Assembly: GCA_938008535.1 (NCBI GenBank)
Contig: CALLKF010000164.1
Coordinates: 10,202-74,201 of the forward strand
Length of the DNA stretch: 64,000 nt
Origin: an uncultured Saprospirales bacterium
GTDB lineage: Bacteria; Bacteroidota; Bacteroidia; Chitinophagales; JADIYW01
Direction of reading: 5' to 3'
Position 1 is the stretch's first letter. Every line of letters begins with the position of its first letter. The notes under the pieces were generated by a model. That model had not been told where the DNA came from. It saw only the letters and a program-made list of their open reading frames with translations, and did not search any database. Both the position numbers and the translations under genes were made by a program. This document shows, piece after piece, positions 1 through 50,668 of the stretch.

Positions 1-1424
1 TCCATTTTGCCAAACGCATTTTTGATGTTGTTGTTACCAATTCCTAAACCACCTTTGTTCCATAACCATTTATTCAAATCTAAACCAATTACTTTAAAAA
101 CGTTATTAAACTGATAGTACAATTCAGTGGAACTAACGCTTAAGCCACTTGCATTCATTTCTGGTAAACCAGCGTTTGTACCATCATCAATAGCACAACC
201 ATGCGTATCGCCACTAATCACAATTACATTTTTTATTGCATTATTTTTGATGTAATTTAAAATTTTTGTTCGTTCATAAGCATACGAACCAAAGTAGTCC
301 GAGAAGCTATATGACAAACGAAAACCAGTGCCAGCATATCCGCCAATATTAAATTGCATGCCTTGTATCAGCAATGGTAATTCTACCAACGGTTGAATAT
401 TTTTATTAAAAGGAACACCAGAAATTATAAATTTCCAGGTTGCAGTTGAGTTCTTAAGTGCATTTAAAAACCAATCTAACTGAGGTTGGTTTAACATGGT
501 TTGAGAAGGACTGTTTCCATTAAACGTCCATAAATTTATAGCTGCATTGTATTTTAAATTATTCCATCCACCTGTATTGCAACTGCGTACATCTATCATA
601 AAAAATTCGCAATTGCCAACTTTAAAAGAATGATAATATCCATCGGTATCATTCTGCATCTGGTAGCCAGGAAAGAAATTTTTATATGCTGTTAAGCAAT
701 TGGTACGCATTTGCTGCGTACGTGGATATAAATCGAAATAATTAATTAATTTACCGTTTTCGTATCTTACTTGTAGTGCACCACCTTTAAAATATTTAGA
801 GTTGCCCCAAGTATCATCATCATCAGGCATGTAGGCAATTGGCATTTTCTTCAACATATCTTTGCAAATCGGCTCTTCATTTCTGCGTCGCCAACCAAGT
901 TTTACTGCGCTCCAATCTTCTGGATAATCCATTCCAACATATCGCGGAATTTGATAGGATGGATAAGTAAAATCACCAGTATGAATAAATAAGATTGGTT
1001 TGTACAACGGCATCACGTCAAACACTTTCATATTGGGTGTTTCCTGACAAGAACCAGTTACAAACGTTAAATGTTCTGCTGTACCAACAACAGGAAATGT
1101 TTTGAAATGACCTAATGTGTTTTCTATATTTCCATTAATGCGATAACGAAAATAGTAATCGGTAAAAATTGCTAAGTTTTCTAGAGTAACAATTTTTGAT
1201 GTATCTAAACTAGCATCGGTAGCTGAATTTATTTGTTGAAAAGAAGCAAATGTTGAATCGGTAGAATATTCTAAACTAAAATTAACGGATGAAGATGTAC
1301 GAATATAAATTCGCGCACTATTTTCGGTAACACCACCAATCATTGGTCCGTGCGTAATGTTTTGTGCAGAAACAATTTTTGTTAGCAGCAACAAAAATGT
1401 GCATTTCCATTTTGATATTAGCAT
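1..1424 (-). CDS. PhoD-like metallophosphatase (alkaline phosphatase D family), N-terminal ~474 aa; C-terminus lies beyond the window start
   Basis: Absent from the ORF track because it is open at the window edge. My minus-strand translation from the ATG at 1424 gives MLISKWKCTFLLLLTKIVSAQNITHGPMIGGVTENSARIYIRT (signal peptide plus PhoD_N-like start). Later motifs are FIHTGDFTYP and VISGDTHGCAIDDG (metallophosphatase). No stop occurs down to position 1. Confidence 0.7.
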   Translation of the reverse strand, partial: MLISKWKCTFLLLLTKIVSAQNITHGPMIGGVTENSARIYIRTSSSVNFSLEYSTDSTFASFQQINSATDASLDTSKIVTLENLAIFTDYYFRYRINGNIENTLGHFKTFPVVGTAEHLTFVTGSCQETPNMKVFDVMPLYKPILFIHTGDFTYPSYQIPRYVGMDYPEDWSAVKLGWRRRNEEPICKDMLKKMPIAYMPDDDDTWGNSKYFKGGALQVRYENGKLINYFDLYPRTQQMRTNCLTAYKNFFPGYQMQNDTDGYYHSFKVGNCEFFMIDVRSCNTGGWNNLKYNAAINLWTFNGNSPSQTMLNQPQLDWFLNALKNSTATWKFIISGVPFNKNIQPLVELPLLIQGMQFNIGGYAGTGFRLSYSFSDYFGSYAYERTKILNYIKNNAIKNVIVISGDTHGCAIDDGTNAGLPEMNASGLSVSSTELYYQFNNVFKVIGLDLNKWLWNKGGLGIGNNNIKNAFGKM

Positions 1425-5302: not shown

Positions 5303-5451
5303 TCAAAAATAGCAAAAATTATGCTAACTATTGTTTCTTAAGTATTTATCAGTAAAAAAGTTCATATTTATAACTCTTTCGTAACAAAAATCTTTCAACA
5401 TAAGACTTATGACTTAAGACTTTTTCTTATCTTCGTCAAACTTTTCCCAAA

Positions 5452-10130: not shown

Positions 10131-10182
10131 GGTGCGAATATAATTTTTACTTACGACTTATTACTTATCACTTACAACTAAT

Positions 10183-36927: not shown

Positions 36928-36951
36928 ATTAGTCGTAAGTTGTAAGTCCTG

Positions 36952-36988
36952 AGTTGTGAGCAAATCTTAAGACTTTCTGCTCACAACT
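36952..36988. other. 11-bp perfect hairpin between hppD stop and marR start
   Basis: AGTTGTGAGCA (36952-36962) pairs with TGCTCACAACT (36978-36988) around a 15-nt loop. No T-run follows on the minus strand. It is flanked by inverted copies of the AGTCGTAAGT word. Confidence 0.6.
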
Positions 36989-36993
36989 TACGA

Positions 36994-38154
36994 CTATAAA
37001 GTTCCTCTTTTTTCTTGTTCTCTTTCAATAGATTCAAATAATGCTTTGAAATTTCCTGCTCCAAAACCTTTCGCACCCATTCTTTGTATGATTTCAAAAA
37101 ACAAGGTTGGTCGGTCTTCCACAGGTTTGGTGAAAATCTGCAATAGATAACCATCTTCATCAGCATCTACTAGTATAGCCAGCTTTTCTAACACAGCAAT
37201 ATCTTCTTTCATAATGCTCATATGTTCGCCTAAGCGCGCTGGAATTTCTTCGTAATAGGCATGTGGTGGTGCGCTTAAAAACTCAACACCACGTGCACGC
37301 AATTGTGTTACCGTTGAAATAATATCATCGGTAGCGACTGCAATGTGTTGCACGCCTGAACCTTCATAAAAATCTAGATATTCCTCAATTTGTGATTTCT
37401 TTTTACCTTCTGCTGGCTCATTAATTGGAAATTTAATTCTACCATTTCCATTGCTCATTACTTTACTCATCAGTGCAGAATATTCGGTATGAATTTGTTT
37501 ATCATCAAACGATAAAAAGTTTACAAAACCCATTACATCTTCGTACCATTTTACCCAAATATTCATTTCATTCCAGCCAACATTGCCTACCATGTGGTCA
37601 ATAAATTTTAATCCAACAGACGTTGGATTATAATCAGATTTCCAAGGTTGATAGCCAGGTAAAAATGTACCAGTATAATTTTTGCGTTCTACAAAAATAT
37701 GCACGGTATCGCTATACGTATAAATTCCAGAACGCACTACTTCACCAAACTCATCTTTTTCTAAGGTTGGCTGCATGAACGGTTTAGCACCACGCTTGGT
37801 GGTTTCTTCAAATGATTTGGCAGCATCATCTACCCAAAGTGCTATGACTTTTACACCATCACCGTGTTTGGCTAAATGTGTATTTAATGGTGAATCTGAA
37901 GTTAATGGTGTGGTAAGTACTAGTCTAATTTTATCTTGTTTCAGCACATAAGATGCTTTGTCGCGAACACCAGTTTCCAAACCTGCGTATGCTAAGGATT
38001 GAAAGCCGAATGCTGTTTTATAAAAATGTGCAGCTTGCTTTGCATTTCCTACATAAAACTCGACATAATCGGTTCCTAATAACGGTAAAAAATCTTGTGC
38101 ACCATCGAAGATTTTTTCGAGTCCGTATTCTACATTTTTAATTTCTGTTGACAT
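36994..38154 (-). CDS. hppD: 4-hydroxyphenylpyruvate dioxygenase
   Basis: 386-aa ORF with two VOC/glyoxalase-fold halves. It contains GVQHIA and the C-terminal FFEIIQR...GFGAGNFKALFESIE. Confidence 0.9.
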   Translation of the reverse strand: MSTEIKNVEYGLEKIFDGAQDFLPLLGTDYVEFYVGNAKQAAHFYKTAFGFQSLAYAGLETGVRDKASYVLKQDKIRLVLTTPLTSDSPLNTHLAKHGDGVKVIALWVDDAAKSFEETTKRGAKPFMQPTLEKDEFGEVVRSGIYTYSDTVHIFVERKNYTGTFLPGYQPWKSDYNPTSVGLKFIDHMVGNVGWNEMNIWVKWYEDVMGFVNFLSFDDKQIHTEYSALMSKVMSNGNGRIKFPINEPAEGKKKSQIEEYLDFYEGSGVQHIAVATDDIISTVTQLRARGVEFLSAPPHAYYEEIPARLGEHMSIMKEDIAVLEKLAILVDADEDGYLLQIFTKPVEDRPTLFFEIIQRMGAKGFGAGNFKALFESIEREQEKRGTL

Positions 38155-50265: not shown

Positions 50266-50373
50266 AAAATTTTCATTTATCAGCTAATTTATAAGCTCAA
50301 AATTATCAATTATTCAACAAATATTAAAATTTATTGAATAATCTGTAATTTTTAATCAATTTTATTGAATTAT

Positions 50374-50404
50374 TTGCACATAAAGACGTGTTTTATTATC
50401 TTTG
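50374..50404 (+). promoter_or_regulatory. Bacteroidota-type promoter driving the tRNA-like RNA
   Basis: TTG (50374-50376), a 20-nt spacer, then TATCTTTG (50397-50404). The -7 octamer is identical to the one upstream of tRNA-Lys. Confidence 0.6.
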
Positions 50405-50476
50405 TTGTATCAAAGTAAGTTCTTTTAATAAGTAGTAAAATTCTTACGACTTATTATTCACGACTTACGACTATAT

Positions 50477-50631
50477 TGTAAGGTGATGAAACTGGCAGCC
50501 ATGCCCTCTTGTCTCGAGGGTGAGGATCACGAAATAAAGTTAGAGTAGAGCACTTCAATGTGCAGGGGTTGACCACCAACTTTTGCTCTTTTCCTAATCG
50601 CCTTTTGGAGGTTCGACTCCTTCTCTTACAG
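50477..50631 (+). ncRNA. 155-nt tRNA-like RNA of unknown function (acceptor, class-II-type D arm, anticodon-like hairpin, ~86-nt extra domain, canonical T arm)
   Basis: Hand fold. The acceptor is TGTAAGG (50477-83) paired with TCTTACA (50624-30). The D arm is ATG-AAACTGGCAGC-CAT (50486-502). The anticodon-like hairpin is CCCTC-TTGTCTC-GAGGG (50504-20). The T arm is GGAGG-TTCGACT-CCTTC (50607-23) and the discriminator is G. A promoter lies upstream and a terminator downstream. Confidence 0.6.
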
Positions 50632-50635
50632 CAAC

Positions 50636-50668
50636 AAAATCCGAATCAGAAATGGTTCGGATTTTTTT
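50636..50668 (+). terminator. Rho-independent terminator of the tRNA-like RNA
   Basis: AATCCGAA (50638-45) pairs with TTCGGATT (50656-63) around a 10-nt loop. A T7 run follows. Confidence 0.7.

Follow-up and report, generated by a model that had tools for sequence, protein, structure and literature searches.

The subject of this analysis is an RNA gene in a 64,000-nt stretch of contig CALLKF010000164.1, from an uncultured Saprospirales bacterium. This stretch is called the window; position numbers refer to it, and L-numbers denote comparison loci. On the forward strand, 50477-50631 specify an RNA of 155 nt with a tRNA cloverleaf and a large structured variable arm. No open reading frame (ORF) accounts for this locus, as a first-pass annotation made from the letters of the window had already noted. 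The same annotation had read a promoter upstream and a terminator downstream, and both were found where it had placed them. The -7 octamer TATCTTTG recurs identically at 32636-43, in front of tRNA-Lys, and in an alignment of seven syntenic homologues the promoter words TTGCA and TA..TTTG are invariant. An extended -33 word, AATATTTGCA or (A)ATATTTGCA (at 50366-50378 in the window, for example), was found in 25 of 58 regions upstream of family members versus 2 of 81 downstream regions. The enrichment of ATATTTGCA falls 250-450 nt upstream, which suggests a promoter type that is either strong or specifically recognised. Terminator-like sites number four, against 0.3 expected in shuffles. The terminator stem covaries among the syntenic homologues, and a run of at least five T follows within 90 nt in 79 of 102 family genes. 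As far as sequence can tell, it is near certain that the gene at 50477-50631 is functional and transcribed independently, and that its product is a non-canonical tRNA-like RNA of class-II shape.

The fold of the window RNA taken alone is unremarkable (minimum free energy z = -0.49), and the case therefore leans on comparative data. A genome scan with the upstream YdeI/OmdA protein yielded six loci in metagenome-assembled genomes (MAGs) of Saprospirales and Chitinophagales (L001-L006). The YdeI proteins are 65-94% identical, and all six loci carry the RNA just downstream. The RNA is ~93-95% conserved across genomes whose flanking YdeI proteins are 65-75% identical. Over the six syntenic loci the RNA body is 93-100% identical, whereas the leader diverges and shows an indel of ~29 nt between the window and L001 on one side and L002-L006 on the other. 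Relatives had been expected among Flavobacteriales, with synteny from ydeI to the helicase; they belong instead to Saprospirales and Chitinophagales, and synteny is confined to the upstream side (RNR, rhodanese, YdeI), the helicase downstream being convergent and outside it. An exact look-up of the window's YdeI protein gave no match on record.

The family was extended by scanning viral and metagenomic contigs with sequence patterns. It comprises 83 distinct full-length homologues, 117-191 nt long, which come from MAGs of Saprospirales and Chitinophagales, cultured Pedobacter and Rhodocytophaga, metagenomes and phage contigs; the abundant soil lineage is, by its source names, Pedobacter, Pelobium and Daejeonella. 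More than 130 covariance model (CM) matches lie in unrelated contexts. Covariation was tested on 45 diverse homologues over the cloverleaf and three helices of the extra arm, with 500 shuffles as the control. In register, 94.6% of positions were paired and 22 of the 34 pairs had changed on both sides, values reached by 0 of 500 shuffles; sliding the structure by 1-3 columns lowered pairing to 48-58%. In these 45 sequences the acceptor stem is 99.7% paired with compensatory changes in three pairs, the D stem is 100% paired with R10:Y25 alternating between A-U and G-C, and the anticodon-like stem is 98.7% paired with three covarying pairs. The acceptor, the class-II D arm, the CCCTC/GAGGG arm, the T arm and G73 lie exactly where they were first drawn, and every helix covaries. 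The first-pass annotation had also considered that the gene might be a pseudogene, or lack conservation or covariation; conservation and compensatory changes were found instead. A competing fold from RNAalifold on four sequences, in which AAGGUGAU pairs with AUCGCCUU in place of the acceptor stem, was rejected because in the 45 sequences its pairing (78.6%) is that of shuffles (79.1%).

Several nucleotides do not vary at all. U1-A72, G2-C71 and G73 were present in 83 of 83 sequences, as were G34 U35 C36 and U37, while C38 was present in 75 (the window loop UUGUCUC being numbered U33 G34 U35 C36 U37 C38). The loop reads YUGUCUM in all 83 (UUGUCUC 51, CUGUCUC 24, CUGUCUA 8), a count that includes metagenome finds made with a search pattern in which UGUCU was fixed. 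The same loop was seen in unconstrained finds, namely the syntenic loci L001-6, matches to a 3' pattern, protein-first matches and tandem paralogues found by CM. G18G19 is conserved in the D loop and the CAGC or CAGAC that follows contains no U; the T arm keeps G53-C61 and the loop UUCRANU. G73 is followed by C in 93 of 93 distinct genes; the next three bases read C-N-A in 75 of them, and a full CCA is encoded in 30. It had been remarked that the window gene encodes no CCA. The full triplet is indeed absent, but C74 is encoded, and a missing CCA is normal in this genome because tRNA-Lys in the window has none either. Judging from this anatomy, the RNA would be matured like a tRNA, with RNase P presumably removing the 5' leader and the 3' end being completed to CCA, and would fold into an L shape from which the long structured arm projects. 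The coordinates of all features are collected in Table 1.

Table 1. Features of the RNA gene and its flanks in the window.
Feature	Position	Strand	Remarks
Bacteroidota-type promoter	50373..50404	+	-33 TTTG 50373-76, 20-nt spacer, -7 TATCTTTG 50397-404
5' leader	50405..50476	+	poorly conserved; one copy of a dispersed repeat at 50443-73
Mature 155-nt tRNA-like RNA, U1 to discriminator G73	50477..50631	+	self-score with CM R1 138 bits
Acceptor 5' strand TGTAAGG	50477..50483	+	pairs with TCTTACA 50624-30; then U8 G9
Class-II-type D arm	50486..50502	+	3-bp stem ATG/CAT (50486-88/50500-02), 11-nt loop with G18 G19
Anticodon-like arm	50504..50520	+	5-bp stem CCCTC/GAGGG, 7-nt loop UUGUCUC 50509-15
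Structured variable arm	50522..50604	+	~83 nt; Va, bulge, Vb, internal loop, Vc, apical hairpins
Va helix	50522-25/50601-04	+	100% paired, 2 covarying pairs; then bulge AUCA
Vb helix	50530-32/50598-600	+	81-83% paired, as is Vc (MAFFT alignment); compensatory changes in every pair
Conserved internal loop	between Vb and Vc		AAUAAA(G) opposite (C)CUAA
Vc helix	50542-45/50586-89	+	extendable; 81-83% paired (MAFFT alignment); compensatory changes in every pair
Apical hairpins	50550-63 and 50564-85	+	GGGGUUGACCAC motif
T arm GGAGG-UUCGACU-CCUUC	50607..50623	+	99.6% paired, 3 covarying pairs
Acceptor 3' strand, G73 (50631), encoded C74 (50632)	50624..50632	+	
Intrinsic terminator	50636..50668	+	13-bp stem, then T run

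The variable arm is the part in which the RNA departs most from a tRNA. An extra domain of ~86 nt (50521-50606) had been proposed; it is structured and it covaries, but its limits are 50522-50604. Throughout the family, the core of the arm runs from a helix of 4 bp through a 4-nt bulge AUNA and a second, covarying helix of 3 bp to an internal loop with (G/A)AN-AAA opposite CUAA, which we take to resemble a UAA/GAN-type loop. The distal arm is variable, often with a GGGUUGACCAC hairpin, and it is dispensable, since members of 99-124 nt keep only Va, the bulge, Vb and the loop. Of the helices first suggested here, 50540-43/50594-97 would use the conserved CUAA loop and is unsupported, while 50547-52/50584-89 is an alternative register that the window sequence alone cannot decide against 50542-45/50586-89. 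Other candidates were also discarded. A frame in the arm that could specify a tag peptide (GAA AUA AAG ... UAG) lacks conservation, being read through in L006. An ACCAC loop paired with GUGRU in the D region was ruled out by R10, whose covarying partner is Y25, and a likeness of GGAUCAC to the 3' end of 16S rRNA is confined to the sublineage of the window.

Many genomes (L031-L130) carry two or three tandem paralogues of the RNA, all with the YUGUCUC loop, which differ at acceptor positions 4-5 and in their variable arms. Examples are L036:2373-2480 with 2505-2647, L115:694-846, 939-1057 and 1146-1298, L122, L130:4568-5114 and L116:6360-6741. In the Pedobacter lineage, a 108-nt copy is followed by one of 142 nt.

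The locus had been described as a stand-alone tRNA-derived RNA of no known family, and the database searches bear this out. Rfam 15 gave no match at gathering score on the whole window, nor at E<=10 on the locus, and a 99-nt phage variant gave only chance-level matches at E<=10. ARAGORN, including its tmRNA mode, found only tRNA-Lys in the 64-kb window, and blastn of the RNA against 50,697 phage records gave no match. A looser 3' pattern (GCTAA...GGTTCGANTCC) run on viral contigs returned only ordinary tRNA-Ser genes. Full-text literature searches found no description of the RNA family. It is near certain that the family is uncatalogued and widespread in Bacteroidota chromosomes and phages; only its short phage relatives are annotated so far, as tRNA-Asn. 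A widespread RNA gene family, skipped by standard tRNA and Rfam annotation, is thereby added to the genomes of Bacteroidota and their phages.

An indication of function came from the neighbouring genes. All-vs-all clustering of the neighbour proteins gave no universal neighbour, only lineage-level ones, and the largest cluster is a divergently oriented regulator of ~160 aa. Its best model is AsnC (NF008384), with 157-177 bits versus at most 78 bits for other Lrp-family models, and JGI names these proteins 'regulator for asnA, asnC and gidA'. The E. coli AsnC protein is an asparagine-responsive activator of asnA. The AsnC-type gene is adjacent to and divergent from the RNA in 51 host loci, which span regulators down to 45% mutual identity, five acceptor-stem variants and RNA lengths of 122-191 nt. 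The distance from the regulator start codon to the RNA 5' end is 108-416 nt, and the genes beyond the pair vary from locus to locus. A protein-first search, unbiased with respect to the RNA, also found the RNA opposite an AsnC-type gene in Rhodocytophaga rosea CP048222.1 (136 bits) as well as in the Pedobacter genomes CP043329.1 and WKJI01000002.1, and in two metagenome contigs (100 bits). Of the roles offered earlier for the RNA, that of a scaffold is favoured by the evidence from genomic context; that of a primer finds no support, as neither a reverse transcriptase nor a mobile element is linked to it.

A small conserved element of another kind stands opposite the AsnC-type gene in Flammeovirga pectinis, Sediminitomix flava and Hugenholtzia roseola. 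A stem carrying a T-arm-like hairpin is followed in it by GCAUGUGUUUAUUUUAUGUGUUGUUUAUUGGUUAAGG and a terminator, and the element lies upstream of the AsnC-like gene, on the minus strand in all three loci (L257 ~2700-2870, L258 ~2740-2900, L259 ~2700-2900). This Cytophagales element could be a remote relative of the RNA or a replacement for it.

The second indication comes from phages. In a 69-kb viral contig (L029), the RNA was found inside an array of 17 tRNA genes, 5 nt after tRNA-Asn. In a 170-kb viral contig (L030), a 99-nt version lies ~30 nt downstream of a gene for a 294-aa protein that is only the core of a class-IIb aminoacyl-tRNA synthetase (aaRS; PF00152), and the pair recurs in L155-159. 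The enzyme is a stand-alone catalytic core of ~290 aa with motifs 1-3 intact and without an anticodon-binding domain. Its profile (A4) matches AsnRS best (1e-9), with the archaeal AsnA-like paralogue (4e-5) and AspRS behind. In the segment QTNQMWLE it has Leu and Glu where AspRS has Lys-Gln, which is the AsnRS pattern. The enzyme family comprises at least 550 stretches in viral contigs. Linkage to the RNA was counted on the best 80 viral loci, in 21 of which an R1 match (50-109 bits) lies on the same strand 10-250 nt downstream of the enzyme; ARAGORN adds four more, giving 25 of 80. Among these enzyme-linked RNAs the loop is mostly GUU, usually with U37, and the variable arm is short; they are called tRNA-Asn. 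In L151-154, L160-161, L163-164, L168-172 and elsewhere the RNA has no adjacent enzyme gene, which makes the pairing a frequent one without being obligatory. RNAs with a GUC loop and the variable-arm core pair with enzymes of different sub-clades (L030, L155-159, L235), and the GUC loop and arm features therefore track the Bacteroidota host context, not the enzyme lineage.

The same gene pair stands in known phages. The Prochlorococcus phages P-SSM2, P-SSM5 and P-SSM7 have an annotated 'tRNA ligase' followed within ~9 nt by a 'tRNA-Asn' of 85-88 nt, and the phage genome papers searched list the enzyme and tRNA-Asn genes without analysing the pair. That the phage 'tRNA-Asn(GUU)' with its truncated AsnRS-like 'tRNA ligase' (in these three and in T4-GC194) is related to the host RNA follows from CM homology: model R1 was built only from host-type sequences, and with it the enzyme-linked RNAs score 50-109 bits and the cyanophage 'tRNA-Asn' of P-SSM2 78 bits. 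The phage acceptor and D arm are nearly the same as in the host RNA (UGUGAGGUGAYGAAAUUGG...CCUCACAG), and the class-II shape is shared, as is U37 in most members. The phage relatives differ in being 74-111 nt long, mostly GUU-looped and enzyme-linked, with a short variable arm, whereas the window RNA is chromosomal, 155 nt long and without an enzyme nearby, and combines GUC with the variable-arm core.

Some observations concern the phage loci themselves. An HTH and HNH homing-endonuclease-like ORF interrupts the tRNA array of L029 at 361-939 (-). The phage AsnRS-like gene lies near genes for adenylosuccinate synthetase (another aspartate-using enzyme), a Dam-type methylase and GIY-YIG homing endonucleases (L153:4684-5865 and the neighbours in L155 and L158); in L155 and L158, a PAS/HATPase sensor kinase and a response regulator are also near it. 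In P-SSM2 (NC_006883.2, L162), tRNA-Asn PSSM2_199 is recorded at 164094-164179, inside the coding sequence PSSM2_205. ARAGORN and R1 put the gene at L162 3807-3894 (~162082-162169), between PSSM2_198 and PSSM2_200, and the annotated coordinates look shifted.

Taken together, the gene neighbours and the sequence features suggest a part in asparagine metabolism rather than in ordinary decoding. The determinants of bacterial tRNA-Asp are G34 U35 C36, G73 and G2-C71 (PMC9976931). U1-A72 lets the amidotransferase act on Asp-tRNA-Asn, while G1-C72 and U20a shield tRNA-Asp from amidation (PMC9976931). The features of an amidotransferase substrate are present in the family, which has U1-A72 in 83 of 83 sequences, no G1-C72 and no U after G18G19.

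Our preferred reading, to which we give a probability of roughly 0.4, is that the RNA serves as a dedicated non-decoding aminoacyl carrier for tRNA-dependent asparagine formation, on which Asp is loaded by AspRS and amidated by GatCAB. The housekeeping AspRS would charge the RNA with Asp; this step is proposed because the RNA carries G34 U35 C36, G73, G2-C71 and mostly C38. In the next step GatCAB would convert the Asp on the RNA to Asn, which is proposed because U1-A72 is present and no U stands at the site of the U20a antideterminant of tRNA-Asp. Once charged with Asn, the GUC species would be kept away from normal decoding by U37 and its large variable arm. An AsnC-type regulator, adjacent in many lineages though not in the window, would make transcription responsive to asparagine. 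In phages, the AsnRS-like core may produce or process the Asn-charged species directly, and for cyanophages, whose host has no AsnRS, the pair could open a direct route to Asn. A bolder statement, that Bacteroidota make asparagine on a dedicated non-decoding tRNA chimera under AsnC control and that phages pair their own versions with an anticodon-blind minimal AsnRS-like enzyme, is rather doubtful as a whole.

Among the closest known systems is the indirect pathway of a non-discriminating AspRS and a GatCAB transamidosome. The family joins tRNA-Asp determinants with the U1-A72 of tRNA-Asn (PMC9976931) and occurs in lineages that keep GatCAB (PMC4206432). The canonical substrates of that pathway are class I decoding tRNAs with A37 derivatives, whereas the family has U37. 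A natural tRNA-Asp/Asn chimera or non-decoding carrier of this kind is not described in the literature searched. Aminoacyl-tRNAs that are used outside translation include the non-proteinogenic tRNA-Gly of Staphylococcus, which serves the cell wall and whose body is altered so that EF-Tu disfavours it, and tRNA-Glu in haem synthesis. Unlike the family, these are of normal size and have cognate anticodons, no large arm and no dedicated regulator, so that they offer an analogy only.

The gene inventories in Table S1 of Alperstein et al. 2014 (PMC4206432) show where such a carrier might be of use. Pedobacter heparinus has neither asnA nor asnB but has gatCAB, asnS, glnS and a single aspS; Solitalea, Salinibacter and Polaribacter MED152 likewise lack asnA and asnB and have gatCAB, asnS and glnS. 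Chitinophaga, Niastella, Haliscomenobacter, Runella and Spirosoma have asnB only, together with gatCAB, asnS and glnS. Bacteroides has asnA and asnB, asnS and glnS but no gatCAB, and Flavobacterium, Gramella and Cellulophaga have asnB only, again with asnS and glnS and without gatCAB. Prochlorococcus MIT 9312 has asnB only and gatCAB, with neither asnS nor glnS (all from PMC4206432). The RNA is a testable candidate for the published puzzle of why GatCAB is kept beside AsnRS and GlnRS, and of the source of asparagine in Pedobacter without AsnA and AsnB. If the reading is true, the chimera would explain both the 'orphan' GatCAB alongside AsnRS and GlnRS and the asparagine prototrophy without AsnA or AsnB. 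A tRNA that serves metabolism instead of decoding, under an amino-acid-responsive regulator of its own, would put the tRNA fold to a new use. The phage versions and their enzyme would, if this holds, be a previously unrecognised natural orthogonal synthetase-tRNA pair. The phage pair is of interest for genetic-code engineering and for the rewiring of host translation or metabolism by phages, for example in Prochlorococcus without AsnRS.

Several points weigh against the carrier reading. Every functional step of it is one that we infer from sequence. In the window and in L001-L006 the RNA has no AsnC-type gene beside it, no linkage to gatCAB or aspS was seen, and no homologue of the phage enzyme was found in the window or in 0.98 Mb flanking 127 host loci. 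The correlation of the RNA with gatCAB holds at the level of genus or order. Because the metagenome pattern fixed UGUCU, the invariance of the loop leans on the smaller unbiased subsets. Asn on a GUC-loop carrier is barred from direct entry into translation, and a release step is therefore needed. The published account of such genomes has a non-discriminating AspRS acting on ordinary tRNA-Asn and needs no extra RNA (PMC4206432). The phage enzyme, to judge by its sequence, looks like an Asn-activating synthetase, and direct Asn charging of a GUC-loop RNA is a better fit to Asn-RNA as the product than to the making of free Asn. Finally, two or three tandem paralogues with different arms are not obviously needed by a simple scaffold.

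In another explanation, an anticodon-blind AsnRS-like core encoded by a phage, or an unlinked host enzyme in its stead, charges the RNA via its acceptor stem with Asn or a related amino acid. The aminoacyl-RNA itself would then be the product, either a donor for non-ribosomal transfer or a signal. The recurrence of the enzyme-RNA gene pair in phages argues for this, as it includes RNAs with the GUC loop and the variable-arm motif, and so do the missing anticodon-binding domain of the enzyme and the acceptor and D-arm sequences, nearly the same from cyanophage to Bacteroidota. The conserved C74 or CCA would suit a charged RNA, and the conserved core of the variable arm suggests a dedicated partner. 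However, none of the 127 host loci has the enzyme beside it, and neighbour clustering revealed no consistently linked transferase. Such a pair also leaves the set of AspRS identity elements and the invariance of U1-A72 unexplained, and accounts for the AsnC-type link only loosely, via asparagine. On balance this explanation seems unlikely, though not markedly so.

Could the RNA simply decode? It might be an odd tRNA-Asp isoacceptor reading GAY, or a class-II tRNA for deliberate recoding or mistranslation. With class II tRNAs (tRNA-Leu, tRNA-Ser, tRNA-Tyr; RF00005) it shares the 7-bp acceptor, the 5-bp T stem, U8, the 3-bp D stem with a long G18G19 loop, the 5-bp anticodon stem with a 7-nt loop and a helical variable arm. 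The best R1 matches outside the family are ordinary tRNA-Leu, tRNA-Tyr and tRNA-Ser. Nothing is missing from the cloverleaf, which has U33, a GUC triplet and a canonical elbow; one member sits in the phage tRNA array of L029, and relatives with a GUU loop are called tRNA-Asn by ARAGORN and by genome annotators. Against these likenesses stands the invariant U37, as tRNAs almost always have a purine at position 37. The variable arm measures 40-110 nt where class II tRNAs have ~13-20 nt; inside it are conserved motifs, a bulge and an internal loop, often joined by a three-way junction. G73 is combined with U1-A72, and GUC stands on a class II body. The L029 array already holds a normal tRNA-Asp(GUC), and AsnC-type control and tandem paralogues are unexpected for an Asp isoacceptor. 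By the definition of a tRNA in RF00005 and ARAGORN, the family has the cloverleaf and the elbow, but it escapes detection by models of ~70-95 nt, the Rfam tRNA model giving no match even at E<=10, and it lacks the purine at 37. Class-II bodies with non-cognate anticodons are known in allo-tRNAs and nematode nev-tRNAs. These likewise place the anticodon of a class I amino acid on a body with a long variable arm; allo-tRNAs, however, have 8/4 or 9/3 acceptor/T stems and varied anticodons, whereas the family has 7/5, one invariant YUGUCUM loop, U37 and a far larger arm. A decoding role is thus quite unlikely.

It was also considered that the RNA might act as a mimic or sensor and not as a carrier. 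Depending on asparagine status, such a tRNA-Asp/Asn look-alike would titrate, or report on, AspRS, AsnRS, GatCAB, TGT or the stringent-response machinery. This would agree with the adjacency of the AsnC-type gene; the UGU motif and invariant loop would suit enzymes that bind anticodon loops, and regulatory tRNA mimics are known, such as the thrS operator (PMC9976931) and YrlA. Yet the strictly kept G73, C74, often CCA, and acceptor stem point to a function of the acceptor end, and titration alone hardly explains why phages pair the RNA with a catalytically intact aaRS core. We regard a purely regulatory role as very unlikely.

Other RNAs that add a domain to a tRNA-like module do not match the family. 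It resembles tmRNA and YrlA in joining the acceptor/T arm and elbow to an extra domain, and tmRNA is also found in phage tRNA arrays (L252, for example). But position 3:70 is U-A and not the G3:U70 of tmRNA, there is no conserved tag frame and no pseudoknot, an anticodon-like arm is present, and the tmRNA mode of ARAGORN was negative. YrlA differs in that the ends of the family RNA form an acceptor stem and not a Ro-binding stem; there is no Rfam match, and no rsr gene was seen among the recurrent neighbours. The family is not tRNA-Sec either, which has 8/5 stems, a 6-bp D stem and UCA, whereas the family has 7/5 stems, a 3-bp D stem and a GUC loop.

A non-functional origin, be it a decayed tRNA pseudogene, an integration-site remnant, a cis-regulatory leader of a neighbour or a chance fold, could point to the ordinary folding energy (z = -0.49) and the dispersed repeat in the leader, but it is refuted by an RNA far better conserved than the flanking YdeI, by compensatory changes in every helix and by the CM matches in unrelated contexts, and is further opposed by the RNA's own promoter and terminator and the convergent, non-syntenic downstream gene.

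The remaining observations concern the flanks of the gene. The inverted repeat 50309-17/50334-42 and the direct repeat 50331-39/50362-70, which had been read as a possible operator, are present; operator words are not enriched in the family. The 31-nt leader repeat (50443-73) is dispersed as described, with three further copies in the window, and a copy is common to the window, L001 and L045. It is absent from L002-L006 and therefore lies outside the conserved RNA. ACTTAYGACT-like repeat units were seen in the window at 5392-5422, 10150-10180, 36940-36996, 42024 (-) and 50443-50473, the two copies at 36940-36996 forming a long inverted repeat, and this repeat type looks like a REP/MITE-like element. 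On the downstream side, L001 has ~880 nt of extra DNA between the RNA and the helicase. The UvrD-like helicase of the window matches L001:5870-7648 in three tblastn pieces in different frames, which suggests frameshifts or assembly errors in that MAG.

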